A DNA stretch of 63,970 bases, filler included, from Bipalium vagum (Eukaryota): assembly GCA_037834085.1 (NCBI GenBank). It is 3 parts of 3 records of this genome, joined end to end, with 100 filler letters (N's around TTAATTAATTAA, not from the genome) between each part and the next. Parts side by side here need not be neighbours in the genome. Positions count along the whole stretch, not along the records: positions 19,815 to 46,951 come from JBBMKC010105673.1; 2 more parts are not named here. One strand, written 5' to 3'. Below are positions 1,841 through 51,700 of the stretch, piece after piece. The notes beneath the pieces are model-generated. The model had not been told where the DNA came from. It saw nothing but the letters and a program-made list of their open reading frames with translations, and searched no databases. The position numbers were made by a program, and so were the translations under genes. Position 1 is the first letter of the stretch; each line of letters starts with the position of its first letter.

Positions 1841-2896
1841 ATGTTAAAGTCGTTCCTTTTTAAAAAAGTAAGAAATTATAAATTATAAATTTATCTTCTC
1901 AGGTTTACCAATGTTAGTTATTATTAAAATAGAATCCAATATATCGCAGAATACTTTGATCATATCATTTTAATTTATGAATTTGAAATATATTTAAATA
2001 TGATTTTCAAAAATACTATTGTATTAAATTTCAGTCAAAATATTTTTTTCAGAATCTGTCATTATTTCATAAATTGGTTTGCACATATGTGTCGAAGGAT
2101 ACTGAGGTTCGAGAGAGAAACGGCCAAGAATTACTCCAAAATTCAGATTCAGAAGTATTTGATCTTATTAAACAAGAAAAACAGCGTCAAAGAAATGGTC
2201 TTCAGTTAATTGCATCAGAGGTTGGGAGATTAAATCTTTTTCTTAATAATATGGAAAACTGTTCAATTAGTTTTTCAAATTTAAACTCATACTTCACTTA
2301 GCCTTAGTGCGTTACAACAGCGTAAAATTTAAACCAGAGATGAAAAACTTCTGTTGTCTTAACTGTTATTTTTCCATTATCATGTAAGATATTTAGTAAT
2401 TGAGTTCGTCTGCCGGAGAAAATGGTTTAGAATTATAAATAATAATAATATCTTTATATTGATTTTGATAATAAAATAATAATAAAAATAAAAAATCCCT
2501 AATAAGTATTAATAATAATAAATATTAATGATAAATAATATTCCAAATTAAATTATATTCTCAATTTCCCATTTCTGAATTACGGATGTTAACCCTTTAC
2601 GATCTGAATTCGTTTTAAATATTGGAAGTTCATTAGCTGATCCATCATAACCGACTGAAATCATGTGAGACTTAACTGAGAAAATTGCTAAATTTGCCAG
2701 ATAAAATAAATATGAACTTTGGTTTCGTCGATCAGGAATGTGAACTTATTCCAAGATGGAAATCGTACCTTAATCACACCCATTCATCTTGTGAATTAAT
2801 TTTGTATATCGATCAGAATTTCTGCAGCACAGCGGTCATGCAGGCTGTTGGATCTTGTTTAACCAATAAATATGCTGAAGGCTACTCTGGAGCCAG

Positions 2897-2941
<45 letters not shown>

Positions 2942-2942
2942 G

Positions 2943-2980
<38 letters not shown>

Positions 2981-5900
2981 TATTACTCCATATTGACTAT
3001 GTAGAAGTTTTTATGCATATTATTTGTTATTATTTTTATTTATAAAAAAGACTCAATTTTCTTCACAGATATTATGGGGGAACAGAAATAGTCAATAAAA
3101 TTGAAAATTTGGCGTGTGCCAGGTTATTGGATCTGTATCGATTGGATTCATCGGAATGGGGAGTCAATGTACAACCTCTCAGTGGGTCTCCGGCAAACTT
3201 TGCCGTTTACACTGGTCTATTGCAGCCTCATGATCGGATCATGGGACTCGATCTACCAGATGGTGGTCATTTGACTCATGGGTTCATGACCAAAGACAAA
3301 CGGATCAGTGCCACATCGATTTTTTTTGAATCCATGCCATATAAATTGAACGTAAGCTTGATAGTTGCTCTTTCTTCCATTATTTTCTAAATTATTTATT
3401 TAAACTTTACCCTCTTTCGCAAATAAGGAAAATATACTAATTTCGATTTCTTCAATTAAATCATAAAACTCTTAAAGTTTTATTTTATTCAATTTAATAT
3501 ACAGGATGTGGCAAAAGTAACTCAATTTTTTGTTTTATATAGTTTTATTATAGTAAAACCTGCCAATGATGGGCACTACTAGGACCGAAACTTTTGCCCA
3601 AATTTGCTCAGAAAAAATATCAATATTTAATTTTTATTGTTTTTAAATAAAAGTATCGAATTAATCTGTGAACAAATTAAGAGGTCTCACTATATTAAAT
3701 ATTTCTAATTATTAGTTTTGTGGGATATAATTTTTTAAAATACTTTATATTGATTTTAATATCTGTGATTATTTAAAGAACACAAAGTGAAAGCAATTCA
3801 GTTTTATTATGGAAATAACAGTAATAGTACTACAGCCATTCGTTTATTATCTGCTACATTTAACATTGGACAGTCAAAACTCACAAATTTAGTTAGGATA
3901 TTTAAAAGAAATTGGAAAATCAGGAAGGTCAATTTCATCAACAAGTAAAGACAAAACTATTGAGCTAAGAGTAATACCAAAAATGCAGTAGATGAATTTC
4001 TTAACAGTTGAATATTCTTGATAGAAGTGTTCGTCGAATCTTGAATAACAAAGTTAACATGATGGGGATAAAGACAGACGAATAGAGTTTTTTGGTTTTC
4101 TATGGCAAAATATTTGATAGGACAAATATTAATATTGAATTAATTTTTTTCTCTATCAATAAGAATAATACCACAAAATTTCACTCCTTTCAGCCATCAA
4201 TTTATTGATATTGTGCTACTGAATTTGAAACTTATCAATTTATTATTCATAATGAAACATAAAATTGGAACACTTTTATTATGTTGCTTATTCCGTATGA
4301 TAATGTTAGTTGTAGAAAATTAAAATCAATTATTTATCGATTAAATTAAAATTTAAATCAATATTTATAATTTTTATTTTAATTTATATTAATTTTTACC
4401 AAATTTAAGTTGTTAAAATAAAAACATTTCGAAAAAGCATTTATAAACTATTAAAAATATGAAAAAAAATTTTATTATATAATAATAATAAATCGATTGA
4501 TGGTTTCATAAAACATTTATTTTGATTGTTAATGTATTAATTATTGATTAGGTAAAATTCAATATTAAGAGTTTTCTGAAAAATCTAATTGTTGTTTTGT
4601 TTGCATTTAAACAATTTTGGAATTGTGAATTTTATTTCTTTTCAAATAAAAAGCTATTCTTTATTAAATTATTTTTTTAATTCTAATATAAAAACAAAAT
4701 TTCAACCGGTTTTCGAAACAGGACAAGTAATATTAAAGAAATAATTATACTAATATTCTTTATTATTTTATAAATCAGCTCTTTCTATTTTTCCCATTCT
4801 CCCGCCCATACGTGTTTTATCTCCTTTTTTCTCTGTTTTATTTTAAAATAACGAATAGTTACCTTTTATTTCGATTTCAATTAGGATAGTTAATTAAGAA
4901 TCTCTCTTAAAGAAAGAATTGTGTTTTCCACAAACAGGTTCCTTTCATGATATATATCTTTAATGGACTTTCTAGACGAGATGCCGTTAAAAATACATTA
5001 AAAAAAGCTTTTTCTAAATATCCGAAGCAGATAAATAGAGAGGAGTCAGAATAATGAATAGGTATATGTCATAGATTATTTTTTGAAAAACTGTAAATAC
5101 CAAAAATTCATAATAACTAAATAAATTTAATATTAGGTAAATTTAATCGAAAAGATATATTTCACCTGTTCTCTTAGACTTGCTACTAACAAGCTTTTTA
5201 CATAACTTTGTTTTAAGTTCTCATTATTCTGAGAAGTAATTTTTAAGTCTTATTCATTTTGGCAATCTTGGTTCAACTTGTATTAAAAAACTAAATATTT
5301 TAATATTTTCTAACAAACTTAATGAGTATTATAAACCACTAATAATTCAATAGATTAAACTATTACAAACGATTTCTTACAGTTCACAGTTGAAATAAAA
5401 TATCGATCAATTTTATTAAAAAATATTTTCTATTTTTAAAATATTTTTAAAATCCATAATAATACGAATTTTCAGCAAATTATTCAGTAAAATATTTAGA
5501 ATTTTAAAATTATCAAAGACTGGTTATATATAATATTTTAACAATCAATGTTTATTTCAGCTTGTAATATTCATTTTATTTAAAAAATTGTCTTAATTCT
5601 CTAAATTTAATTTTCGGTTCTCATATAATATGGTTTGAAGAATTAAAAAAAACCACCGAAACACAAATGCTTTTATATCATTTAATAAAGGTAGATTAAA
5701 ATTATTTCCAAAATAATCAATATCAATTCATAATTCGTAATATTGGTCAATCTAAATTACTTTTCTGCTAATTAAATGGAAAATCATTAAGTTGCATTGA
5801 TTTTTTAAATTATTTATTTTATTTCGATCGATATTGTAAAAAAATATATTTTGACTTTGATCTGTTCGTCGTGTTTGATTTCTTGACTTCAATTTTCTAT

Positions 5901-8900
5901 CAAATTTGTTATTAGAACAAAACCGGTCTCATCGATTATGACGCTTTGGAGAAGTCAGCTGAGATTTTCAAACCTAAATTGATCATTGCTGGAGTCTCAG
6001 CCTATTCCAGATTGCTGGACTACGCTCGATTTCGTCAGGTAAGCTAGTCAAAAGTCATTAGGATCATTCCATAAAAAAATAAATAAGGATTTCTTTTTAT
6101 TGATTTCATTCTTTATATTTATATTGTGGTTCAAAATTTTTATTTTTAATTAAATCTGTCTATTAATTTTAAATCTGTTGTCAGGGCTAGAGAACTCAAT
6201 TTTATTGGTTTCCTGGGAAAAATCGATTTTTATTAAATCAATATTACTATATATTTAGAGCATTGCTTTTAATTCAAAAATTATTATCAGTTTTATTTAG
6301 TCTCATATATTTATTGATTTTATTGAAATATATATTAATATAAAGGGGTGTTAAAAATAATGTTTTTAATAAACAATTTATATTTCGTGTAAACCTTTCT
6401 ATACAGAAATATTTTATGAATAAGAAGAAAGCATTTTAAGACCAAAATTTTATTATAATTTATTTGAATCATCCTATCTGAAGGACAATACTTGCCTTCG
6501 TTTAGCCAAATTCAATAATTCTTTGGAGCAAAATTTAATCGACCGTATCTCACAACCAACTTACTCTCCTCTCATGAATGTGGTGGATAGCCTCATATTC
6601 GGGAATTTTGAGTCAAGGAGAAAAATGAAAGAAAATGAAATCCGTGCGAGAAATAAAATGTTCCTAGAACAGTTCTTGGTAGAAAAGGCAGATTACAAGC
6701 GATTTTTTGATTAGCAACACGAGGTTTGTCATTTTGGTGTAATGGGATGACTGCTATTCGTCCCTTAACTTTTGTATTTTCGTTATCCAAATCCCTCGAT
6801 CAACTTTATAAATCGATTTCTGTACTGAACTACCATAATTGATTAGTTTCTTTTTCTTTTTCATGAGCATTCATCAAATTTAAATTCTACACAACCAATA
6901 CTTGTGTTCATTTGATTCTTTTTTTGATAGAACTGCACCGTTGTGTTACCATTTTCATATTTTACATGATAAATTCTTTGTTCACATCCAAAAAGAATAA
7001 TATTGAGTTAGTTAAAGGTCATTTTTTAGTTCCTTAAAACGATTTTGTAACAAACTTATAACCATCTTTTTGAAACGAAATTGCTATCAACTCAATATTA
7101 ATTTTTATTTTTCAGCTTTTCTAAAATAACAATAATACTAATTTAATTATTTAATTCGTTTTTATAAATTTTAAGATAAATTAATGTATTATTTTCATTA
7201 ATTACCACAACTTATTTCATTAAATATTGACCGTTATTATTTTTAATTTTATCAATTTTCTATAATCGATTAATGCTAGTGGAATTATATTATTTTTGCT
7301 TATTAAATTAAAAATGGAACTTGTACCGAGCAAATTTCGCCTTTATTTCTTCTTTATTCCGACTTTTTGTATTTACTTAGAAAGATTATGGTACTTTTAG
7401 ATTTGTGATAAGGTTGACGCCATACTGCTTGCCGACATGGCTCATATATCAGGATTAGTGGCAAGCCATGTCATCCCTTCCCCCTTTGAATATGCCGATG
7501 TCGTTTCCAGTACAACCCACAAATCATTGAGAGGTCCGCGAGCCGGTATGATATTTTATCGACGGAAACCGAGGGAGGTGACCAAGGAAACTGCAAAATC
7601 AACTGAAAAATGGGTAAATCCACGTATGGTCAATGCGGAAGAAAAAATAAACGGGGCCGTTTTTCCCGGCTTGCAAGGAGGACCACACATCAATGCAATT
7701 GCTGGCGTGGCTGTGATGGCTAAAGAGGTGAGGTAGACTTTTTAATACATGTTTGTTTTACTTGGTCGTACCGATCACACCTTTAAACATCGATTTTTTC
7801 TTTATTTGTGGTCATTGATTAATAATATAGTTTAAATAAAATAAATGTTAACAATATTTACATAGTTTGCTATAAGATTACAAATGTATATACACGGCAT
7901 TCGATTTTGAAGCATTTAACCAAATATTGCACATCAAAGTTCAACTTTACAGAAGGCGACATCCATTATTTGCCAATATGATAACAGTTCAACCACCTGT
8001 CATTAACAAGATCGATTTTGTACAATTCTCAGACGCAGAGTTAGAAATTGACAATAACACATCGGAAACTGTTCACCAAATTAACGGAAACTGCTGAAAT
8101 TGTATTGCACATGAATGAAATGAAATTACACATCAAAGAATTCCAGGCTGTGAATTGAACGAATAAAAATGCAACACAAATTTAATTATCCATATTCGTG
8201 TATGGAAAATATATAGAATCTAATGGTGAAAGGAATGAAAATAATTTTTTACTTCATTTTAAAGTTTCAAGGTTGTCAAAATCCCCTTTCAGTTTTTTTG
8301 ACTGATCTGCTATTTGTACTCCTGCCTCATATAATGGCAAATATAATGGTATCATGTCGAAAGTGATTTAATGAAAACAAATGACCATTTTACAGACGAA
8401 ATCGACAATTTGATTAACTATTTTCTCAATACATTTTATTGTATTTAGTCGAATTGTTTGTTTAGTTGATATTGATTTGATCACTTGTTATTTTCCGCAT
8501 TATCTACACTGATAATCTTAGATTCAGATCATGATTTCAAGGAATGTTATGAGGTGTGATGTAAACATGTCTTCTGATCGGAGATTTTCAGATTCTGGTT
8601 TTGATATGGATTCTTGTATTTTTTTGTCTTTTTCTTTCCTATTTTGATGATTATTATTTATTTTTAAGTGGCTTTAAAATTTTTGTTTTTTAATCAAAAG
8701 CCAAATCCAAGTAGAATATTCTTTTTTTATTTTTCAAAATTTTTAAATGTAACTTTTTTAATCAATAACTTAAAACTTTTGCAATCTTTCAAAAATTTAT
8801 TTTAATCTTTTTAACCCTTGAACTGATTATTTTGTAACTTATAATATTCAATATATCTCTTTGTAAATTTTAATCAAATAATCTATTATAATAGAATATT

Positions 8901-8997
8901 TGTAATTGATAATTTTCTGAAATCATTTTGGTTTATAAATCTTTTTAAAATTATTTTTTAACACAGTTAATTTTAAATATTACTATGAGATTAAGGG

Positions 8998-9064
<67 letters not shown>

Positions 9065-10454
9065 TTTTAACAATACTAATAAGAAAATGATTTAAAATTA
9101 AAGTAAATATTCAGTTCTCTAAATTAATTAAAAATAATACTATAAAATGAAGTTAATTAAAAATATTCAAAAGCATAATGAAAGTAGAACATTTTTGTCT
9201 TAAGGAAATTATCCTTATGTTATCCATTAAATTTCAGGCCAAATCTGAGGCCTTTGTTGCATATTCCAAACAAGTTTTATTGAACGCTAAGGCGTTGGCA
9301 GATGAATTGACAAAGCTTAATTACAATATTGTGTCTGGAGGCACCGATTGCCATTTATTATTGTTAGACCTTCGTTCCAAAGGTATTGATGGTTCTCGAG
9401 TGGATTGGGTCTGCGAACAGTCGGGAATTGTAGCCAACAAGAATACCGTGCCTGGCGATAAAAGCGCAATGAATCCCGGAGGACTGCGGCTTGGTAAAAA
9501 TTTATTGATTATAATTTTTAATGAATATTGGTATGGAAAGTATCTTATTTAAAACTTTTATAACAACTTATTTATAAATGGACACAATTTTTTTATGTTC
9601 CTAAAGCCTAAATCGTTTTCCATGTAATAATGAAATACGATACATTTCTAAATGGAAAAAATGATACAGGTAAAGTCAAATATAACCTTATCTAAATTTT
9701 ATTTTATAGAGAAATTTCATTATTCTATTTTAAAAAATAACATTTTTTAATATATCTTATTATTTTCAATTTTAATCAATAATGAATTATTTTGAAAGCA
9801 ATTTCGATTTTTTGATATCAATATTTAATCATTGTTTTAAATCATAAACCTCTCTAAAATTGTCTAATGATCATCGATTTTATCAATTGACATTTCTTGC
9901 TATTGTCTCTCAGAAAACACTTGTATAATAAGTATAAAATAATGAATTAAGCTTTAAGTTGGCATTCTCCTCAATTCCAAGAGTACTGGAATTCTGTCGT
10001 TCCAGCAGTTCTCAGATTTTTTTCTGATTCAAGTTCAGTTCTGCTCTATTCATTTTTTTGTTTTTCATTCATAATAAATCCTCCAGATTTTCATCATCAA
10101 TGATTTCTCTTTAACATTTTAATAGGTCTGTTACTTTATCCTTAAATCAGGAACCCCGGCGTTGACTTCGCGAAATTTAAAGGAGACTGATTTCAGAAAA
10201 ATCGCAGCATTTATTGATAAAGGAGTGCAGATAGCACTGGATGCCAAACCTCATTCGAGTAAGTAGTTATTTCACAGTTTCCAAAGAACGATCAGCTTCA
10301 ATTGAGTTTATTTTTCTTATTTGAAGAAAATCTCAAAGAATTCAAAGCATTTGTCATTTCGGATAAGAAAACAGCGACGGTGATAAAGGATTTAAGACTA
10401 CAAGTGGAAGAATTTATTTCCAAATTTCCCATGCCCGGTTGGGATGAATATTGA
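1841..10454 (+). CDS. SHMT: Serine hydroxymethyltransferase, probably mitochondrial (9 exons, about 499 aa)
   Basis: GT-AG exons with consistent phase: 1841-1867, 2053-2220, 2817-2896, 3069-3351, 5916-6038, 7401-7727, 9238-9493, 10151-10258, 10327-10454 (1500 nt). Motifs [55 protein letters not shown]-lysine [39 protein letters not shown], and C-terminal FPMPG. The N-terminus [17 protein letters not shown] is basic and lacks acidic residues, like a transit peptide. Exon 1 is the least certain. Confidence 0.95.
2898..2982. repeat. (TTA)n microsatellite at the start of SHMT intron 3
   Basis: Seen directly; source of the spurious poly-Leu ORF. Confidence 0.95.
6345..7100. mobile_element. Decayed mariner fragments in SHMT intron 5
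   Basis: [13 protein letters not shown] segment resembling the mariner HPPYSPDL..D..LF motif; further fragments nearby. Confidence 0.45.
9001..9060. repeat. (AAT)n microsatellite
   Basis: About 20 perfect units. Confidence 0.95.
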
Positions 10455-13699: not shown

Positions 13700-16400
13700 T
13701 AATGTGCCTTGAAATTCCTAAATCTGCTCTTTTTCCACCTTCAATCAATGAGAGAAGGCTCAGCAGAAAAGATAGGCAAACTAGAGCTCTCACTATTAAT
13801 AGAAATGATCGAAAAAGATTATGACGTTGACCATATCATGGATAAAATTGTGAGTGTCTTCCCTTCTTACCTTCTGCTTCACGTCATCAACCATATCTTG
13901 GGTCAAACATGTTTAAAGATAAAGATAATAAATTTTCTGTAAGATCTAATTTTAATAAAAATATGAAATACACAGTAAATGAGATTCTCAATGACGATAT
14001 TATTGATTGCCGACCATCAATGATAGACATTATTGGACACTTTACTAACTCTTTAGCTGAAAACAAAACTTGGGTTTTCAACGAATTTTGTAAGTCTTCT
14101 TCGACTGAACTATACCTTGATTTGATTTCACCTCCTGAAGTGTTTATCACACTGAAAAGGGTAGATAACACAATTCCTGGATGCGATGGCATCACATATA
14201 GTAACTTGAAATATTTTGATCCTGACGGAGACATCTTATGCTTCTTGTTTAATAAAATAATTGAATCCGGAAAAATTCCTTCTCTTTGGAATTTGTTTAA
14301 AACATCTTTAATTCCAAAACCTGGCAGAAGTGATAATTATCATCTGGTGTCAAGCTGGAGACCATTTGCTCTTCTCTGTACTTCCTACAAGATTTTCGCT
14401 GCGAATCTCTGTTGCAGATTAAGCATCTGGGTCACGGAGAAAAATCTTCTTCATTTTTGTCAAAAAGCTGGCAATGAGTATGAAGGTTCTAACTGCAGCT
14501 TTGGAACACTCTAAATATTCAGAAAATTGCGCAATTTCCATTGGTTGGCTTGACATCAAAGACGCATTTCCGAGTGTTCCACACTAATATCTGTGGTCAC
14601 TTCTTCGATATATAGGGGTTGGCAAAAGCTTCGTAAAAATATTGTAATTATGTTAAATTAATATCAGCAATTCAGAGAGGTGTGAGACAAGGCTATCCAC
14701 TTTCCAGTTACTTTTCGGAATTGCAATAAATCCCATTCTTGAAGCTGTAAGCTCTGTTTCGATCCCATCTTTTATGATTGGAACTTCTGCAATAACGAGT
14801 TTTGGCTTATGCAGATGATATGGTCATTAATGCCAATAATTCTGCTGACTTACAGAAAATTATCGATGCAGCCATTTCAATCACTGAGTGTTCAGAAATG
14901 CACTACCACCCTGAGAAATGTTCTTTCCTAAATTTGCCACAAGATGAAATGAGTAGTGTCATTCCCATCTACAACATTCCACTTCGTCGGCTGACTTCCA
15001 AAGATTTCTATCAGTATTTGAGTGTTTCTGTTGGTGTGGAAATTGATCAATCGCCCTATGAAACTCTGAATAAAATCATAGCCGATTTAAGAAAGATTGT
15101 CAATTCTCCCTTGTTTGGTTGGCAAAAACTGAAAGCCTACAAAATCTTTTTGCATTCTCGTGTGATTTTTCCATTCAGAACTAGTGAAGTAAAAATTAAC
15201 TTTCTTTAATTAACCATTAAAACATGGTTCGGGTAATGAGAATAGAAGTTCAAAAATCAGATCATACTTAAAACAAGTCCTGAAACTACCACCACAAGCC
15301 GAGTCCAATTAGCTCTATTCTTCTATCGAAAATGGAGGAACTGGTTTGACTGATTTGCGTGATGAATATTCTACTCATGTATTGTACAAGGTTTTCGTCT
15401 CTTGACAGCATCATGCGATTCTACTCGAAAAAACATTTTTGACTCTCTTTGTTTTGTCACGGCTACTAGTCTAACTTCATCTGCTTGTAATATTTCAGAT
15501 TTTTTTCAATGGTAAGACAAAATGCAATTCAGCATCTAAAAAATCTTGGTGGCTGAGAGTGAAATAATTGAGTAATTTAGAAAATCTCTTGCTATTTTAT
15601 TTCTTTTGAATTTGAAAGGGATATGATTACCCATCGAATTTCTCCTGAAAGCAGAGGTACCTCTATAAGCACCTATAAAGAACGAAGTGCTTTGTCCTAT
15701 CTTCTCCATCTTAACATTGAAAGTTCTTACAGTTTGAAGTGGCATAACAGCAAGAGGAGTAATCTTATTGCTGATACTTTTAAACTCTGCTCTCCTGTAA
15801 ATAAAATGATTTTTAACTATGGTTTGAGTAACTTTGGCTTCAAATTTATTCATAAAGCTCGCTCAAACTCGCTTCCTATCAATGCAAGACCATGGAATAA
15901 GTGTAAAGATTCTCGTGCCTGCAGACACTGTCACTTTTCTGAGGAATCAATGACGCATGCGTTGCAAAATTGTTTTCCAAGCATGTCATTGTCTACAGAG
16001 AGTCACAATGCTTGTTTAAAGAAAATTGCTGATGCACTTTGTAGTCCTGATATTATTATAGTCATGGACAAGAAATGTGAGCTCTTGAAGGATTGCAACG
16101 ATCTTGTTGATCTTTTGATTATACATGTTGAGAAAAAATTGATTTTTCTCATTGATTTCAAATGTCAGATGAATTCAGATGAAGACAATTTAGCTGTATA
16201 ATTGGATCCCTAGGAATAGTACAGTCAAAAACAATTGATATATAGGAGAAAATCAGTGTCCGGAGATCAAAATTTGGTCCACTTTTCAAGGAATGTGCAG
16301 CATTATATATTGAATACTCGACAAAGATTTGGCAGTACCGTGTTACAGGAATCCTGAGATTTATTTAGCAGCGATTCTATAATGTAAATTAAATTTGTAA
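13700..16400 (+). mobile_element. Decayed non-LTR retrotransposon with C-terminal restriction-like endonuclease (NeSL/R5/Utopia-like)
   Basis: RT motifs PGCDGI, LIPKPG, SWRPFALLCTSYKIF, LDIKDAFPSVPH, RGVRQGYPL and LAYADD; CCHC knuckle CRHC..ESMTHALQNC; RLE-like DLLI...LIDFK; C-terminal GSLG...IW...TG. Many stops and frameshifts. Confidence 0.85.
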
Positions 16401-16910
16401 GTTAAATATTTTCTATAATCTGCTCTTATGGTATTGAGGATTTTGCCGGAATGAGAATTTAATCTCGTGCATAAAATTTTGCAAGTTCACTATTGATTGA
16501 ATGAATGTTATTTGGTAATTTTCACTGATGCGTTTATTTTCAACCTCAATCTCCAATGGAAAAGTACGAATTCCTTCATTCCGCTTACTCCTTTTTTTCT
16601 TGATTGCAGAACTTTTTTAAGTATATGATTAATGTCCCTTTATGAAAATGACTTAATGACCTTCTTTCAACTATTCTGTAACTTTCAGAATTACAGATAT
16701 TCAATGAGAATAAGAAACTTGTTTCTCTTTTTAAAAACTTTTTAGTATCGAATGGTTACTATTTTAATAAAATATTTTAAAATAAAAGATCAAAATCGCC
16801 AATTCCTTTTGTGCCAACTTAATATTTATTAAATTAAATTGATTTGTTAAAATTGTTGGTCCGTATTATCAAAGATTTGTTTTACTTGAATTAAAACGAT
16901 ACATTTTATA

Positions 16911-17939
16911 TTAGTTTGTTCAAAGTATTGTACGTTTTTTGTACATTCATTTTTAAAGAGTGTAAGTCAGCCGAAAAAAAAGGTGTATTGATTAAAATAA
17001 AAGCCATTAGCGTTTACACACTTTTGCCAATGAATTGATAGATTTTCTATTCCTATACGATAGAATTCAGTAGAGCTAGAGGCATCTTTCGTACTGAAAT
17101 ATTTTTCCATTCAAATAATTTTGTAAATGTTTGAAAAAAATGGAAAGCCGTTGGTGAAAGAACGGACAAGAATGGTGGATATGGCATGAATATCGTAATT
17201 TAAGCTTTTCCACAAATCCGGGGTTTTCTTTGCTATGTACAGAAAGGAATTGTCATGCAACCGAATTTGGCTTTTCTTAATGGTCAATGCTGAGTACATT
17301 CTTTTTAAATTTTCTTGCATAATATCAATTTTAGGCAGTATTTATCTACTGTTATCATTTTTCAGATATGAATCAATTCTTTTGAACACACCTTTCAGTA
17401 ACCATTATCTTCTTTTCCTGTCGATTCGGTTATGGAGAGCACTTGGAACAGTTTAACCATTGTGCTTAAAGTTTAATATTTTTATTTTAAAACAATTTTT
17501 TATCAAAAGTAATCAGATGATAAAGAAATGGTTCCTGTTTGGTTCTGAACATATCTCATAGCTATTAATTTTCTTTTATTTGTTTAGCTCACTTCTTTAT
17601 CTTACCTTTTTTCTTCATATGATTGGAAACGGTTCCAATACTGGTATTTAGACTTATTCAAGTTTCCTTATTGTTGTTCGCGTATCGTCTTTCACCAGAG
17701 CCTTTAAATCCTAGTCATCAAATTTGGCTGGACGGCCAATTCGTTTCGCATCTTCAGGAGATAAACGTCCATTACGGAACTTCTAGTACCACTGTCATAT
17801 ATTAATTGATTTCCAGCAGCAAACTTCATTAACTTTTCGAACAGTTTCAGCTGTTCTTCTGCGTAATTCAAAAATTTTAATATTTACAATTTTAATGTAT
17901 ACAAACAAAAAACGTGCAAAACTTTCCGAACAAACCTAA
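16911..17939 (-). mobile_element. Mariner with recognisable TIRs, internally deleted
   Basis: TA-flanked TTAGTTTGTTCAAAGTATTGTACGTTTTTTG versus the reverse complement TTAGGTTTGTTCGGAAAGTTTTGCACGTTTTTTG; remnants LHDNS and YSSDLSPTDFH-like. Confidence 0.75.
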
Positions 17940-18699
17940 TAATTTTAATTGTTTGATAAATTTGATCTATTTCTTTTCAAAATATTTTTCTGCGGATTTG
18001 GAAATGAATTTTATCAATGTTGATCTTAAACTATTTTCATTTTAACATTAAAATAAGTATAAAGACGTACATCATTAATACAATTTTTTTTAATGAAGTC
18101 ATTGTACTTGATGCTTATTTTAGGGTGATTGGTGAAAATGCCTATTATGTGGGGTAAGACTGTTTTTGAAAATTTTATAAGATGTAATTGTAATAAGATG
18201 TACCTTTAAGTTTTATACAAATATTAAATGACTATTTTATCAATAATCTGAAATAGTCTTACACTTCTATCTTTGTAGAGTTCTTCGGATTAGAAAATTC
18301 GGGACCATGTAGCTAATAAACTATAAATAAATTTTCAATTTTAATTAGATTGATGGCCTTTGATTGACTTAAAGTGGGTTTTATTTATTATAGTTTAACG
18401 TTGCTTTACATAGGACGAAGGAAATATTATATTTAATAATATATGTAATTCTTAACTCTTTATTCATTTGAATTTTGATCGGACTTCAAAAAATCGTGGA
18501 AGTGTTATTATTAGAATAGAAACACACTATTCGAATAAACAAGATTAAATCTATTTATATTCTTACTTAAGAGCTCAAACATACAAATAAAGGTCGCAAA
18601 GGGCATCTGTATAAAATCAGCCAAGTCCTGTTCACTAAGAGAGAACAGAGTCGAGTGAAAAAGTAAAATAAAAATGGAGATTAACAAAAAAAATCTTTA

Positions 18700-19290
18700 T
18701 CCTGATTATATTGACTCAATTATAACTGGTAATGAGATATGATGTTTTAAATATGATCTAAAAACAAAGGGTCAAAGTAGTAAATGGAAGAAAGTTGATG
18801 AGCCGAAAATTTAGTTTTCAATGATCAAGAATTAAGACTATCTTAATTACTATTTATGATTCAAAAGGTATATTCAATAAGGAATTTGTCAAGCTGTTAA
18901 TGGGAAATATTATTTAAATGTTTTACATCGTTTGTGGTCAAGAATTGTTTAAGTTAGAATTCAATAACCAGAAGGAAAACAGTTGTTCTTATTTCACGAT
19001 AATGCTCTGCCTCACAAAACCATAAAAGTTTGAATTCTTGACCAAAAATACATTTTTCATCTGACATCCACCATATTCGCCTGACCTCTCACCATGCAAC
19101 TATTTTCTATTCCCAAAACTGAAATTTGTATTGAAAGGTATATTTTATGATGATGTCCAAGCTAACCAAGCAGCCGTAACAAAAGTGCTCAAGAAAATTT
19201 CTTTAAATGACTTTGGAGAATGTATCCATACGCTAGCTGACCGTTCCAGATATTGTATCGAATCCCATGTAACCTATTTTGAATAATTAT
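18700..19290 (+). mobile_element. Mariner transposase 3' fragment
   Basis: FHDNALPH and HPPYSPDLSPCNYFLFPKLK. Confidence 0.75.
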
Positions 19291-19459
19291 AATCTTTCAT
19301 GGATAATATAATGAGTACTTTAATGTGTATCAATAAAGTTCAGTTATTTATAAAATAAGATGTGTATATAATGAGAAATAAGATTTTTACAGTAAAATGA
19401 CAATAATAAACTACGAACTTAAAGCAATATATATAAAATGCACAACCTTTCTCTTTCTG

Positions 19460-19498
<39 letters not shown>

Positions 19499-19714
19499 TT
19501 AAATTAATTATATGTTAAGATCCTGGAGTTGATGGATAAAAAGGATGTTAAAGTTCGGAGCCTAAATATCTCTCAGGTCTCAACGGTTGAAGGTTGCGTT
19601 TATGCGTGTTCGATTATTTGAAAACTGAAGGTTGCGTTCAAAATTAAAATCACTGAGAAAACGATTTGTGGTTTAATACGTTTATTGAAAGCGATATCAA
19701 ATTACAATTAAAAT

Positions 19715-19814
19715 NNNNNNNNNNNNNNNNNNNNNNNNNNNNNNNNNNNNNNNNNNNNTTAATTAATTAANNNNNNNNNNNNNNNNNNNNNNNNNNNNNN
19801 NNNNNNNNNNNNNN
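19715..19814. other. Artificial contig spacer (44 N + TTAATTAATTAA + 44 N)
   Basis: Exactly 100 bp; the 12-mer has stops in all six frames. Confidence 0.95.

Positions 19815-19862
<48 letters not shown>
19815..19862. repeat. (AAT)n microsatellite at contig end
   Basis: Seen directly. Confidence 0.9.
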
Positions 19863-20756
19863 GTAATGATAATGATGATAATAATATTAACTACGATGGT
19901 AAAATTTAAGTTTCAATAAATATACTAACGAAAATTCATTATTTTCATAAAAATAATAATCAGTGATCCGATCCGTATTATCAAAACAGAGTCTAGAGAT
20001 TGTAATATTAAAATTATATTAAAAATTGAAATAATGAATAGAATCATAGGTAAAACTAATTCATCATCAAAAGCTATTTAATTAAAAACCAAATAAATAA
20101 TAAATATAGCACCATCATCTTTGATGTACCTTTAAAATAATTAATAAAATAAATTAAATTTTTAATAAATTAACTAAAAAAGTAATTACAGAAAAACAAC
20201 CAATAGATTAGAAAATAAGAATAGTAGACAGAAAGCACTAAACATTTGTTTAAATTGTTTTTAAAATAATCTTAAAGGATTAAAGAAATCACTTAAAAAT
20301 TAATAAGATATTTTAACTTAAAATATAAAATTTCAATGTACTCGTTCAGGATAAGGATGTGCCAATGAATTCTTTATAAGTTTTCATCGAAGAATTATTT
20401 AATCAACATTAAAAGACGAAATAATAAGTTTTATTTCACATTTTATCAATTTAAAAAATTTAATAAAAAAGAAAATTTACTCAAAAATTTAATAAATTAA
20501 TTGAATTTTCAATTTTAATTAAAAATTTATTGGTATCAAGGTTTTCGAAAATTTTCATCCTCTTTCATTCCAATGTTAGAAGTATTTAAAGAAAAAAGAT
20601 ATAAGGAATTCACTAACCATTACAACAATTGACCTGTCTAAGTTTAATTTAGTTTAGTTTGTATTATTAATATTATTAATACTATTAATACTAAAAATTT
20701 TTATTATATAAAATTATATTTTAGGTTTGAAATTTGAGATTTATGGAAAGAAATTG

Positions 20757-21844
20757 AATTCTCTGGTCAAAAGTTTGGAAACCCCTAACGAAAAAATCAA
20801 AATTGAAGATTCCAGTCTTATACTACTGGTTTTATTTCTTTTGTTTAATAATTTTGATGTATTTCCTGTTTTTAAATCAAAAATTAAAATACTTTTTATT
20901 AAGATTACATTGACACTATTTTTACATTCAAAATCCTATTAGTTAATTTTCATTTTCATTTTTTGGCTTTATGACGGCGACACATTTTAAGTAATCTCTT
21001 CATAAGTTTATGTATTTTTCTACACTTATGTTGTTCCAAGCAACTTTTAAGGAATTCTATTGACTGTTTGTTCGCATATTTCTCCCTTGACGGTCAAGCT
21101 CATCGCGAAGTAATTCGAAAGGATTAAAATCTGACGATTCTGGCGGCCATTTCAACAATTGAAGTATTCCATCTTCTTCTTTTTTCTTTAAATTATTATA
21201 AAAGCTTAGAAATGTGTTTGGGTCGTTTTCATGTTGAAAAGTAAAACAGTGATCAGGGATGAGATTGCCTATTGCTGAAGAATGCGATGATATAGTTCTT
21301 TTCTTATGATGCCACCAATTTGAACTAACACACCAACTCCATCATAAGCAAAATAAAATATAGAAATAGCATAAATGTTGCTAATTTGTTAAAATTTTAG
21401 CACATTAATGAATGCCAACAAAATATGGATTTTAAATTGAAATTTTAACAGGATCTTAACAAAAAAATTTAATTTATGGCTAAATAACATAGAAACAATA
21501 AATATCAGGTTGTGTAGAATGAAATTTGTAGGTAATGAAATTGCCAACTCTAATTGTTGCTTATTTGTTATCGGCTTGATATTTTACCATTTTGTTTTTT
21601 GCGTTGGTAAATTATTTTATATAAATTTATATCTGTCTTGTTTGAAAATATCATTTTAATTAAATTAAATGATATTAATTAATCATTTTATTTGTAATTT
21701 ATTAATAAACCTTGTTTTTCATTTTACAAATTTCATACTACACAACCTGATACATAAAAATACTTGAGTAAAATAATAGGCTATATATGTAGACATTCTT
21801 GATTTTTCATTTTTTAGGGGTTTCCAAACTTTTGAACTGTAGTG
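20757..21844 (-). mobile_element. Internally deleted Tc1 (DD34E) element
   Basis: Inverted TCAAAAGTTTGGAAACCCCTAA at both ends, with the right terminus followed by TA; remnants FQHENDP and WPPESSDFNPFE. Confidence 0.75.
21505..21750. mobile_element. 246-bp mariner-type MITE nested in the Tc1 element
   Basis: 26-bp TIR TCAGGTTGTGTAG(A/T)ATGAAATTTGTA with one mismatch; TA on both sides. Confidence 0.85.
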
Positions 21845-22419
21845 TACAATAAAATAAAGTATTAACATAAATATAACCACTTTGTATTGTGTCATGTATG
21901 GAAGAATCTAATAAGAGTCTAGTATGAAGAGTAACTAAATATAAATGTCAAACATGGTTTTCTGGGCTTTGTTCCGAAACTTTAAACCTTAAAAATCATC
22001 AAAATTCTGTAAGGCCAGTCAAGACTAATGATAATAATAAAATAAATACTATATAAAATATAAATACTTAAATACGTATAAATACTTATCAAGTTCTCCG
22101 AAAAATTAGGAAAATGTGTTCTACGCGGATAGAATCTTCAAATTATCTTAAAGTTGATAGAAAGTGTTGTATAAAAAGGAAGAATATATTGTTGATTGAA
22201 AATTTCTTGATTAATGGAAATTCTATTTTGAGTTTTTCTAAAAAAATCAGAAGCAATTTCAGAATAACCTTATATTAACTCAAAAGTTTTAAGAAAATTC
22301 AAAAATGAATAAATATGTTATTATAATCAATCACTTCTAATAATTTTTCAACATTCATCAATCAAAATATTTACATATTTCATCGAATTCTAAATATTAC
22401 AATTTAACTAAAGACTTAC

Positions 22420-22443
22420 GGGTGGTAAATTGCTTGGATATTT
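22420..22443 (-). CDS. Candidate 24-nt ACC microexon, (R)NIQAIYH(P)
   Basis: Reads aatttag|AAATATCCAAGCAATTTACCACCC|gtaagt on the minus strand. Phase 2 on both sides, in frame with the preceding exon ending LPSTHPE-AG. Confidence 0.6.
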
Positions 22444-22639
22444 CTAAATTTAGAGTAAAATATTCAATAAAAATATATTACATACAAATATTTATGATAT
22501 AAAAAAATATAATTTGAACATAAAAATAATTACTAAAGTCTAAAAAACAAATAATTATCATATTGTCAGTATTAGATTGTTTCATAATTTGTCGTTTTTT
22601 ATTAATAAAATTTTAAAAAGCAAGATAAAGAAATGATTT

Positions 22640-23710
22640 TATTATAAATTCATCCCTTTCAATTACTAGTCTCCATTTACAAAAAAGATTTCCTATTTCT
22701 GATTTATAAAATTTTTGGTTTTATTGTTGAAAAAGTAGTCAAAACCTTTTTATCACTTTCCAAGCAAATAAATCTTAACTAATTACTGTTGGTCAGGAGA
22801 TGCAACATCAGGACTATACAGTGGATGCGGAAAAAATTTCCAGTTCAGCTGCTTAATATTTTCCTGTCATCTTCGCAATATGTGATCTAGCAATATCATG
22901 TTTAAAAGCTCCTTTTTTCTGATTTGCAAATCAAGAAAATTCTTGGTGATATTTTCCTAGAGACGAGTAATTTGATCAGAATATCGTATACTAAAGCTTA
23001 GGAACAAGAAACCCATTGTCTATAGTACTTATGATTGTCATATTCATGTCATTTCCAATAGGTCACTAACAACCTGATCCAAAAAAGAAGTGTTTTAGTG
23101 TCTGGAAAGTCATGATGCGTACATTGTTAGTCACTCAGATTTTTGTAAATCTGCCAATTAATAAGTTCCTAATTTTCAGCTTCCCTCTCTTTCCATTATT
23201 TGCCTTTAGATGGCGGAGTAGTGTCACAGTATTCGATTCCGTTATAGTCTACAATACAACCCGTCAATGTTTGGTGTAGACCTTTCTGAATTCATTGTAG
23301 GAGCAAGTACTCATTGACATAGGAAAAACGTCCAAATAGAAATTTCTTTCTCTAAATATAGAAAACGAAAACTGTTATGTTCTGACTTCCAGTTCTTCAA
23401 GATACATCTTATTAATGATGGAAATTGCTTCAATACTATTTTTTCCTTTACAGAATTCATAAGAATACACCTCCGAACATGGACACTAGTAGGTTGATAA
23501 TTAATCATCTTTGCACCAATCTTTTGATCGATCTTAAAATTTATGCTAATTAAATAAGCAATATGAAAAATAAAAACATCTTGAATTAATTCCATTGATT
23601 TTAAAAAATGCTCATTTTTTCCTATTTAAAATATGTTAATGAAAAACAAAAATTCTATGAAACAGTCTGATAGAAAAATTGCCTGAATCATGTTTAAAAC
23701 ATGAAAGAAA
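22640..23710 (-). mobile_element. Heavily decayed mariner
   Basis: PHPLYSPDVAS at about 22800-22830 on the minus strand; boundaries approximate. Confidence 0.5.
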
Positions 23711-23939
23711 TTCACATTTAATAAAGTTTCACATAAAATAACATATTTTTACAAATATACACGATGGTATGCATTTCGATTGTTAATTTATCTGATTCAG
23801 ATAATTGAGTATTATTAACAAATCTTTTATGTACATGAAAAAATTCTTTTTCGGAAAGTAAAATATATAAAGTCATTTTTATCATTACAGAATATTTCAA
23901 AACCAAAATTATCAAAATCAATCTAAAATATTAAATGTA

Positions 23940-25240
23940 CATGGTGCGTCAGCTAATCGAGGACAAAAATTGATATTAAAGGTAAGTAATATTGTTAATG
24001 AAAAGAATGAATATTTTTAAGCAATATCAGAAAATTTGTTTGTTTTAAGTATACAAGTTTTATTTATTCAATAAAATCGCCTTCAGTATCAATTACAGCT
24101 TCAAGGTAGCTTCTGAAAACCTTACAAGCCGCGATCAAATAGTTTTTGTTCATATTTATCATAGCAGAACTTATAGAAGCCCGTAATAATTCTTTGGTAT
24201 TATAAGGATGTTTGCTCGTCTCCTTCTCTACGACGCCCCATACTACATAGTCCAAAGGATTTAAATCGGGTGAGCTAAGTAACCATAAGTTTGGAGCGAC
24301 ATGGTCGTTAAAATTTAGCGATATCCATTTTTGTGTTTTTAATGCTGTACGCTAGAGAGCTGAGTTTTGTTGGAACACATAAGGCCTTCCGTGGGCAATT
24401 TTTCATCCAAAGCTTTACATATGTATCCAGACACTCGATATAAGGAGATGCATTAATTCTAAGTCCATGTGGAAAGAAATAAGGAGGCATAGCATGACCT
24501 TCGTTGTTCACAACACCCAATATCATTAAAGATGATGAAAACTTTGTGTGCATAACATTAGGGACTTTAGAAGCACTGGATCACAGCCATCGATCAATCC
24601 TCCTATTAACCTTTTGATCTTGAGTGAAAAGTTTTCCATCAAAAAAGAACTATAGCATGTTTGGATGATCAAGATGCTTGATTTTGTTTAAAAGACACTT
24701 CGAGCGGATTAAACGATTTTCTTTGGTTTTTGCCGATACAAAATGTCTTCTTCTCATGAAGTAGGCTTGCATTTTAAATCATTGTGTACCATTCGTCTTA
24801 CTATTGACTCAGAAACCGATAGTAGATGGGCAATTTATCTCATTGGTATTCCGGGACTTTCATGAACAACATCCTGGACTTTTTGAACAAAATTAACATT
24901 TCTGACAATATCTGAACGTAAAAAGTGTTTTTCTTTTAGATATAGAGGAAAAAATTCGATCAGATGCCAAACATTCCTTTCTAATTTTATTGACAAGCGA
25001 TTTGGCCACATTAAGAAATATGGAAATTTCTAAGTCACTGTGTCCAGCGGCTAATGCAACAATAACTGCATGTCTTTTCATTTCTTTTGTTAATTCATAA
25101 GTTATCTCTTATATTTCTAAATTAAAAAATAATTATTTAATGTTGTATCAATAAATATTGCAAATCAATTTTAGCGCCACTAAAAAAATTATCATAATAT
25201 ATTTTATTAATTTTTGTTCTCAAATAGCTGACGCACCCTG
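23940..25240 (-). mobile_element. Full-length maT (DD37D)-like transposon with disrupted transposase
   Basis: TA-flanked TIRs CA(T/G)GGTGCGTCAGCTA...ACAAAAATT; ORF pieces MKRHAVIVAL, HTKF..MILGVV..GHAMPPYFF and SPDLNPLDYVVW. Confidence 0.9.
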
Positions 25241-25301
25241 TATACCATCATTTAAACATCATTAATTTTTAAAATTTTAATCAAATAGTTATTGAACAAA
25301 C

Positions 25302-46951: not shown

Positions 46952-47051
46952 NNNNNNNNNNNNNNNNNNNNNNNNNNNNNNNNNNNNNNNNNNNNTTAAT
47001 TAATTAANNNNNNNNNNNNNNNNNNNNNNNNNNNNNNNNNNNNNNNNNNNN
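46952..47051. other. Artificial contig spacer (44 N + TTAATTAATTAA + 44 N)
   Basis: Same structure as 19715-19814. Confidence 0.95.
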
Positions 47052-48707: not shown

Positions 48708-51700
48708 TCAATCGCAAACGGATTCAACCACGTTCTTTTGGCAAAAATCACATTTCACATCACAACACCATTGAAATTTGCAACGACATTGTTCCATCCG
48801 GGTTAGCGTTCGTTTCGTATGACCTCTTCCACAACACAGTTCACTGCAACTCCCGGTTGTTTGATCTGACTGTTTTTCGGACGGTATGGTGGAATCGTCA
48901 CATTTTCGTCCCTGTGTACCTATGCTTCCAATGTGGGGATTGTGAATACAATAATCTGGTGATCTGCTGAGATAGATGAGATCGTTGTCGGTAAACATGC
49001 GATTAGTTGAATAACGAGGTACGAGTCTGGAATCAACGAAGTGTACTTGCATTGCTTTGTGGAATCTGGATTTTAGTAGATCTCCGACCTGCCTGAAATC
49101 AGGTAATGCTCTGATGCACGTTTTCATCTCGCAAGAACCACTGACGCCATGGCATTTACACTTTTTCCCCATTTTCGAAATTACTGCCTAAAGATATGGA
49201 ATTATTTAATTAAATTAATTATTGTTTAATTTCTCAAATGAAATAAATGTGAGATAAAAAATTATCAGCTAAAGTTTACTTTGTCCTTTGATGTTATGGC
49301 AGATGTAAAAATTTCTCTTTTGCCAAGTATAGGGTGTCTAATAAGTATCCAATTAGCTTACGTTTCTTTTCAAATGATAAATTATTTCTTTTTCGTTTTT
49401 GACTCATCTTTGGCATATTCATAATAGGCGGATAATATTCATTATTTAAACAAAATCAAATGTTATTGTTCAGTTGTTTTAAAATAAATAAATATAAAGA
49501 AACTTTGCTTATTTAAAATTAATTAAAATGATCAAGGTTCATATCGAAAATCCGTTTTCCCTTAAGTCTGTGCATTTTTAATAAGTTTTAAGTCAAATTG
49601 GGTAGCTCAAAAGTTCATCCGGTTTCTGCGAACGCATTACTTCAATAAGAAATGTTTTATCTGCGAAAGTAATAAATCTAACATACAATCTTTAAATTAT
49701 AATAATTAAAAATAATTTTGTTTAAATACATCACTTTATTTGAATTGATAAAATATATTTAGCGTTGTTTTCAAATGGACTATAACAAAAAGCATTTCCG
49801 ACATATTTTTGTTTTTTATTTTGGAAATGGCAAAGTTGCAGCAAAAGCGCATAGAAATTTGTTATAACCGAACATACATGTCAGATATGGTATAAAAAAT
49901 TTAAATCCGGAACCTTTGAGGTTTATACTGCTTTCCGTTCCGGGAGGTCAATTGAAATTTCTGATGACCAAACAAAGTCTATTTTTATAATTGATCGTCA
50001 CCTAACGGTTGATGAAATAGCAGGACAGTTACAAATATCAAAAATAGTTGGTAGTAGACCTTTGGTATGACTGGGATACGTAAAAAACTGGATATTTGGA
50101 TTCCACATCAATTAGCAAATAATCATTTAATATAAAGATTCTATATTTGTGATATGAATGTTAAAGCGTAACATTACCGATCAATTTCTGAAGAGATATA
50201 ACTGTCAATTAAAAATAGAACATAAATTAATGTAATCAGTATAAAAGTCATCTCTAACATAAAACGACTAAATTTGATCGAGTTTGCAGTATCAATTTGA
50301 GACAACAGTTTGTCAATAACCAAGTACTTCAAAATATAAAATTTCGTTCCAGGTTCCACCATACACACAACAAACAATTTTTACCATTTATTGGGCCTCT
50401 TGCAGTTGGATTTGGAGTCTGTTCTGTAGGAACCCATTGACAATAACATTCACAGCTCTTATACAAAATCAACTTTTCATCAGAAGTGGCAATTCTATCC
50501 TAAAATGGATCTTTGTTATGTCTATTATATTTGCATTTGAAATCATGATCTTCAGACTTCCTATCAATTGATAAATTGTGTGGAATCCAAATCTAAGCTC
50601 TATGAGTTCCAAATAACATACTCATGATCTAGTACAGTTTTTTCACTACAGTGGAGATTAACAACCATTTCTTCGGTGGATCAGATTTGGCAAATTGTTT
50701 TACAATTTAATTATCCAGAATCTGTGGCCGGTCAGCTTTTGAGTAGTCTACCATGATTATATCACAATTTCTGAATATATTGAATATGCATATCATATCG
50801 GAATTTCCTTTATTCTTAGGTGAGCAACTCTTGCATTACAAGCCTGGTCAAATTTACACAGTAAACTTTGTATAATATGTATTTTATCTGAATTCAAATC
50901 TTGATATTTAAAAATGCATCCAGCAACAATATTATTTAAACAAAGAATCGATTAAACATTCACTTAATCATTAAATCAAATTTTATTTAATATCAAATAA
51001 GTACTATTAAAATTGTACTTGCAAAATCGTCAGTTTCGTTTTGGAGCATCTTTTGATGTCTATATTGAACTGTGTTCAAGTTCACCAATGTTCATATTGA
51101 CCAGGTATTACTGAATTTTTTATGTTTCTTCTCTTTATAAAAATATTATTGAAATAATTCAATTTAATTTAATTACAAAAGCTTCTATTATACTATATGT
51201 CAGTCGAAAAGTTTCGGGAGTGACACACAAACATTATTATTATAGTAATTAACCTAATTGTTTTCACCGTCACAATCTATAAATTTTTACATTCTGTCAA
51301 ACCACTCATTAAAACATTTATTCCAATCCGAAGTCGATATTTTCAAAGAATATGATTTGAACGCTTCTACAGCCTGTTTGGGACATGAAAACCGTTGGCC
51401 CCGCAACATTTTTTTGATGAAACGAAATGTGAAAAAGTCATATGATGGCAAATGAGAACTATGAGATGGATGGCTTAATAATTCAGCATTTTGAGTCCTC
51501 AAAAAATCAATTGTTTTATGGGCTGTATATGAAGTTGCATTATCACGAAGAAGGATAATGGAGCGTTTCAAGTTGATTTTTCTCTATACTTTGAAAACTT
51601 CAGGCAAGCAAACTGTGGTTTACCAATTCGAAATAACTTTGAGACGGTCATCTAAAGGAATGGTAACTACAAGATCTAATTTGACGATGAAACAGGCAGC

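Follow-up and report, generated by a model that had tools for sequence, protein, structure and literature searches.

A likely 24-nt microexon at the start of the regulatory loop of ACC in a probable flatworm

The window, by which we mean the whole 63,970-nt stretch of DNA that was analysed, contains the N-terminal half of a gene for acetyl-CoA carboxylase (ACC), the rate-limiting enzyme of fatty-acid synthesis. Behind it on the minus strand lies a 24-nt segment (22443-22420) that is flanked by splice signals and keeps the reading frame. We think it probable that this segment is a real microexon in a probable flatworm ACC, that its intron position is likely common with vertebrates, and that, when included, it would lengthen the beginning of the central-domain regulatory loop by eight residues. 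That 22443-22420 is an exon we infer from sequence; it is not an observation.

The window and its ACC gene

The window is eukaryotic, has a GC content of about 27%, and its pieces are separated by gaps at 19715-19814 and 46952-47051, each of which reads N44-TTAATTAATTAA-N44. The first gap stands behind an (ATT)n run, and the sequence is in both cases a six-frame-stop linker; among the literature matches listed for this linker, none concerned an animal assembly by its title. The ACC piece is flanked by an SHMT-like gene (2676-10453, plus strand), which we take to be SHMT from its motifs, and by a multi-exon Wnt gene (48711-55998, minus strand) with PF00110 look-alikes, for one exon of which the ESM Atlas returned 'Wnt' only. 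Sampled exons of these two genes have a GC content of about 0.40-0.44 at the lowest codon position, versus a GC3 of 0.23 in the ACC exons. Whether the three pieces truly adjoin one another is doubtful. Broken frames at 13846-16198 (plus strand) with reverse-transcriptase-like and cysteine-rich C-terminal parts resemble, judged by their motifs, a non-LTR retrotransposon. On the same strand, a tttag-30 nt-gtaaga arrangement at 18124-18153, with a GC content of 0.43 and AT-rich flanks, possibly represents a small exon that belongs to a gene not yet recognised.

The ACC model (46120-25302, minus strand) comprises 18 exons that encode 1,130 aa without a stop, covers BC, BT, BCCP and the first part of the central domain, and is 57% identical to quail ACC1. 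With quail ACC as query, the best 120 of 1,435 matches comprised one moth model and 119 proteins that were from vertebrates or nearly identical to those. A single central-domain exon used as query against proteins of up to 2,000 aa gave no match, and a flatworm ACC profile search returned 32 proteins, none of them named as coming from a free-living flatworm. In a tree of its residues 501-1130 with 24 rows, the window ACC grouped with one trematode, one monogenean and one JGI protein at 100/100. It keeps an HP motif that is lost in the ACCs of parasitic flatworms, which points to a free-living flatworm as the likely owner of the gene.

Intron sizes between 25302 and 46120 are bimodal: 6 of the 17 introns measure 45-48 nt, and 7 measure 1.3-3.8 kb and carry transposon relics. 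An ATG frame at 46221-46148 (minus strand) ends in KRQESLR and resembles an N-terminal kinase site; it has no in-frame join to the next exon over a gap of 27 nt, and the start of the ACC model is provisional.

The last exon of the model (25420-25302, minus strand) matches residues 1152-1189 of human ACC1 (chain 6g2i_D, E 3.8e-9). It ends in ...HPE-AG followed by gtttgt, at cumulative phase 2. The intron between this exon and the candidate (25301-22444, minus strand) had been described as 2.9 kb long and filled with transposons; it measures 2,858 nt and does hold a 1.3-kb high-copy DNA transposon (23938-25242), which is bounded by 38-nt terminal inverted repeats and whose transposase-like frames are decayed. 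The read depth of this element in run X1 is about 15,000-25,000, versus 22-30 in single-copy bins; from its motifs we assume it to be Tc1/mariner. A second repeat, a 250-nt MITE-like element at 21503-21752, has 28-nt terminal inverted repeats and a depth of about 18,000.

The candidate microexon

The candidate reads AAATATCCAAGCAATTTACCACCC and lies between a tttag acceptor and a gtaagt donor; read directly on the minus strand, the sequence upstream of 22443 is ...actctaaatttag and the downstream sequence is gtaagt. Entered at phase 2, it adds the peptide R-NIQAIYH-P. The earlier note had given the same signals, length and reading, and the sequence at 22443-22420 is as it described. All three frames of the 24 nt lack a stop, so that its entry phase of 2 rests on the cumulative phase of the upstream exon and not on the candidate.

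The candidate has a GC content of 0.375, versus 0.12 and 0.19 in its flanks, and consists of single-copy DNA outside the transposons. A transposon origin of the 24 nt was rejected, there being no repeat match over the candidate within the window, as was an origin through duplication of the tail of the upstream exon, with which it has only CCAAGCA in common (p 0.14). A 2,260-nt contig of run X1 spans 21729-23988 with 0 differences from the window. This run behaves as DNA, without splice joints, and is possibly the window's own source; the match thus speaks only against a local assembly error.

Position and phase compared with the vertebrate exon

Vertebrate ACC1 (ACACA) contains a 24-nt cassette exon, which is exon 28 of mouse Acc1 (PMC11494077, whose reference list includes Kong 1990 and Barber 2001). 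The claim that it directly follows FMLPTSHPNR is confirmed by that paper and by 163 vertebrate proteins, in which the eight residues after FMLPTSHPN-R are included in 155 and skipped in 8. The candidate agrees with this exon in position (after FMLPxxHPx-R) and in length, as had been claimed. The suggested agreement in phase also holds, given a vertebrate phase of 2 deduced from genomic reading frames and an antisense oligo. The vertebrate genomic ORF P0064 stops at HPNR, that is, at the junction; the Taenia-cluster genomic ORF P0332 stops at SMQM, whereas the full proteins read SMQI; and the antisense oligo of PMC11494077, which the paper names as directed to the 5' site, reads after reverse complementation as an acceptor followed by A-GGG. 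We infer from the sequences a phase-2 intron at this codon in both vertebrates and the tapeworm. Since the ORF ends and the oligo fit a phase-2 GT intron, the position and phase of the intron are probably ancient and common to both lineages.

The candidate and the vertebrate cassette are therefore alike in following FMLPxxHPx-R, in comprising 24 nt or eight residues, in their deduced phase of 2 on both sides, and in standing at the entry to the loop. The peptides R-NIQAIYH-P and R-GNIPTLN-R, in contrast, are similar only when shifted by one residue; the vertebrate exon restores an arginine at its end, whereas the candidate ends in proline and so does not put back the arginine ahead of the serine. 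In catfish ACC1, the 8-aa exon is followed at the same junction by an extra insert of about 46 residues; the junction tolerates inserts.

Splice signals, sequence context and the possibility of chance

The splice signals had been called strong. AG and GT are present; their strength depends on the model. Among the 18 real ACC exons, 7, 10, 10 or 18 score lower than the candidate under four matrices, which were built on 18 sites only. The GTAAGT at 22419-22414 (minus strand) is the only one in the 5,487 nt from 25301 to 19815. Within these 5,487 nt, the candidate ranks first under three matrices, both among 41 stop-free candidates of 9-30 nt with a length divisible by three and among the 8 of exactly 24 nt; it ranks 12 of 538 once all lengths from 3 to 60 nt and stops are admitted. 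In the known ACC introns (16.6 kb), its score was reached by none of 22 candidates of 24 nt and by 0-1 of 149 short candidates that keep the frame; in other null sequence (61 kb), 0-1 and 0-10 candidates of these two kinds reached it. The pattern YAG-N24-GTRAGT occurs twice in the window versus 0.54 expected, the other match being the tail of a real SHMT exon.

The 3' splice region (22543-22444, minus strand) has its tttag behind an 87-nt stretch free of AG, and 55 of its 100 nt are T. No other of 379 intronic YAG sites has so high a T content, the length of the AG-free zone falls within the top 3%, and both features are found together at 5 of 2,316 YAG sites on both strands of the window. The exon-like rise in GC is in the top 2%, and both flanks are as poor in GC as those of real exons, a level reached by 7% of the background. 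These context features were picked once the candidate was already known. Judged by splice scores, the candidate is moderately beyond chance; its context sets it further apart.

Exons regulated by eMIC are reported to be marked by long AG exclusion zones and by long pyrimidine tracts (PMC8797185). The candidate resembles the neural eMIC (SRRM3/4) microexons of bilaterians described there in being at most 27 nt long, in keeping the frame, and in its long AG exclusion zone and U-rich tract; it differs in that the 100 nt upstream contain neither a UGC close to the acceptor nor a CUAAY. Those 100 nt also lack YGCY and UGCAUG, and no other eMIC, MBNL or RBFOX motifs were found around the candidate. 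At least 262 microexons are reported in planarians (PMC4978528). Those under CELF/MBNL control in that paper share with the candidate the phylum (as judged by the tree) and the size class, whereas the candidate has no YGCY within 100 nt on either side. A search by name did not find ACC in the text of PMC4978528 or in 8 of its supplementary files, where genes may be listed under other identifiers.

The main rival to a real microexon is chance: AG and GTAAGT would have come to lie 24 nt apart in an AT-rich intron, and the upstream exon would splice to an exon beyond the gap. In 400 block shuffles, a 24-nt candidate of equal strength arose in 0.7, 6, 9 or 28%, and one of any length divisible by three in 4-92%. 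Look-alikes are present as well, with 16 YAG-3n-GTRAG arrangements in the window, and an equally tidy tcag-27nt-gtaagt at 29590 lies within a transposon relic. The candidate has nil in-register similarity to GNIPTLNR, and a reader who seeks 24 nt sometimes finds 24 nt. Against chance stands the U-rich, AG-free upstream tract, which is found in no other look-alike: these have at most 44 T and at most 77 nt free of AG, versus 55 and 87 for the candidate, which thus leads the 16 in both respects. Chance would further need the length match, the rise in GC and a shifted match at NI (described below) all to be coincidences. On balance we regard a chance arrangement as unlikely, though it is the explanation that competes most seriously, and the candidate as probably a real microexon.

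Ancestral switch or independent gain

If the microexon is real, it may have been gained independently at a permissive loop intron, or it may descend, together with exon 28 of vertebrate Acc1, from a single exon that was already spliced alternatively in the bilaterian ancestor. We slightly favour independent gain, itself a tentative reading, over inheritance, which we consider rather doubtful. Under inheritance, the 24-nt exon at the loop entry would be an ancestral bilaterian microexon, kept for >600 million years in a free-living flatworm and in vertebrates, and would tune kinase access to the loop; orthology of the candidate to the vertebrate exon is not established.

The junction, the length and the deduced phase are all equal, as common descent would have it. 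The in-register score versus GNIPTLNR, however, is -8. When shifted by one, NIQAIYH scores 9 versus the NIPTLNR of GNIPTLNR (p 0.036 from 20,000 random stop-free 7-mers of the ACC contig, 0.057 from 1,123 ACC 7-mers), but the shifted match requires the loss of a codon at one end and the gain of one at the other. Ancestry is kept alive, at the doubtful level given above, by the identical length and by the NI that the two peptides share after the shift. The loop start of S. japonicum, SSSTVNRRSS, fits the included vertebrate form (score 20, shuffle p 0.0013, best of 18); none of the remaining 17 loop starts scores above 10 against that form.

In protein models, the junction varies in none of the 10 invertebrate species with at least two models (a chiton, six trematodes plus Calicophoron, and two tapeworms), and 4 of them show a 7-aa cassette elsewhere. 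This count includes model sets that represent different assemblies and not isoforms, would miss constitutive small exons, and comprises no free-living flatworm among the models that cover the junction.

The 7-aa cassette was resolved in models of S. japonicum, S. bovis, O. felineus and C. sinensis; the trematode ACC proteins concerned are P0297/P0349, P0348/P0351, P0347/P0343, P0354/P0359 and P0358/P0356. It follows FQDPPY[HQ]T and reads YFNQFNQ or YFNRFNK in schistosomes and TTPRIRK or TTSRIRK in liver flukes; it is probably encoded by a 21-nt microexon. Like the candidate, it is a small in-frame insert in the central domain of a flatworm ACC and is present in some isoforms only; it differs in its site, about 160-190 residues downstream, and in having 7 residues and not 8. 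Between schistosomes and liver flukes its length is kept and its sequence is unrelated. Poor similarity is therefore compatible with homology, which helps the case for an ancestral switch, and small cassettes evidently recur in the central domain of ACC. Chiton ACC (P0322, P0306, P0323) has two cassette inserts, one of 9 aa immediately ahead of a phosphosite-like motif, RHSMSG, in the N-terminal part and one of 13 aa after QFPSQQ.

Published surveys weigh against inheritance. Only 4 eMIC exons of fly and mouse are at the same position, and these are mostly read as convergent (PMC8797185); only 2 neural exons are confidently traced to the bilaterian ancestor in 20 species, and recurrent gain at equivalent positions is reported (bioRxiv 10.64898/2026.09.05.749416). 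The alternative exons of fly ACC among those listed measure 267 and 177 nt. The literature searched yielded no report of an invertebrate or conserved ACC microexon, and in PMC9929638, PMC11653684 and PMC8641155, ACACA appears in unrelated senses. The earlier note's proposal of an ancient bilaterian microexon switch is thus not upheld, given the in-register score, the 0 of 10 species that vary and the mostly convergent outcome of the surveys (PMC8797185; bioRxiv 10.64898/2026.09.05.749416).

The downstream side of the gene

The C-terminal half of ACC (about 1,150 aa) is missing from the window, where its best profile match has E 0.85; the same profile method recovers 15 exon frames of the N-terminal half at E below 1e-12. 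No credible next ACC exon was found between the candidate and the gap or beyond it in the window using tblastn, the C-half profile and an R-x-G...F..F..F matrix, from which 7 of 25 proteins without a motif match were left out. Two sequences were rejected as exons. IIRIGSLIIIF at 19981, the best local hit of the matrix, scores 8.7, versus 22-45 for true homologues, and comes 12th among 35,320 windows; the frame at 22237-22140 (KTQNRISI..., with 'NRISI' like NRMSF) has no GT before its stop and an intron-like GC content of 0.20. A 17-nt ag/gt piece at 20129-20113 (minus strand), which runs from phase 2 to phase 1 and reads YIKDD, is a possible small exon. A 63-nt piece at 19992-19930 (minus strand) reads DSVLIIRIGSLIIIFMKIMNF and weakly resembles the R-x-G...F motif that follows the loop, with a score within chance.

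That the gene truly ends here, as an ACC that is split or truncated, its last exon being the candidate or the frame 22237-22141 and its carboxyltransferase half elsewhere or lost, would agree with the absence of C-terminal sequence and with a stretch beyond the gap that has repeats and the opposite-strand SHMT gene; it is very improbable, however, considering that the contig breaks 2.6 kb past the candidate at a microsatellite and linker gap in a gene whose introns reach 3.8 kb, that the frame at 22237-22140 is intron-like in GC, that the N-terminal half is intact and without stops, and that in related flatworms ACC forms a single chain of 2,200-2,950 aa.

Proposed working of the exon and its significance

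As a real microexon, the candidate may be defined by its long U-rich, AG-free tract together with the consensus donor, as in regulated microexons, and from these two features its inclusion would probably vary between tissues, with skipping in some of them. When included, it would lengthen the start of the ACC regulatory loop by eight residues, as does exon 28 in vertebrates. In human ACC1, Ser1201 and Ser1216 sit in the central-domain regulatory loop, and Ser1201 is described as only moderately conserved (PMC4833862). The vertebrate eight-residue exon has been tied to phosphorylation and activity in earlier work (cited in PMC11494077). Inclusion of the flatworm exon would put eight residues between the junction arginine and the next exon, with a proline (CCN) at the new junction. 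Together these changes are predicted to alter any basophilic kinase site that follows, as is reported of the vertebrate exon for Ser1200. An RRxS/RKSS motif is found 6-8 residues after the junction in schistosomes and Paragonimus, and not in liver flukes or tapeworms.

Were the candidate a pseudo-exon, the finding would be ordinary. Were it ancestral, it would join the very small number of regulated microexons with such deep ancestry, and its role would be metabolic, not neural. If the microexon is real, the flatworm exon would represent either rare deep microexon ancestry outside the neural programme or repeated gain at one regulatory loop.
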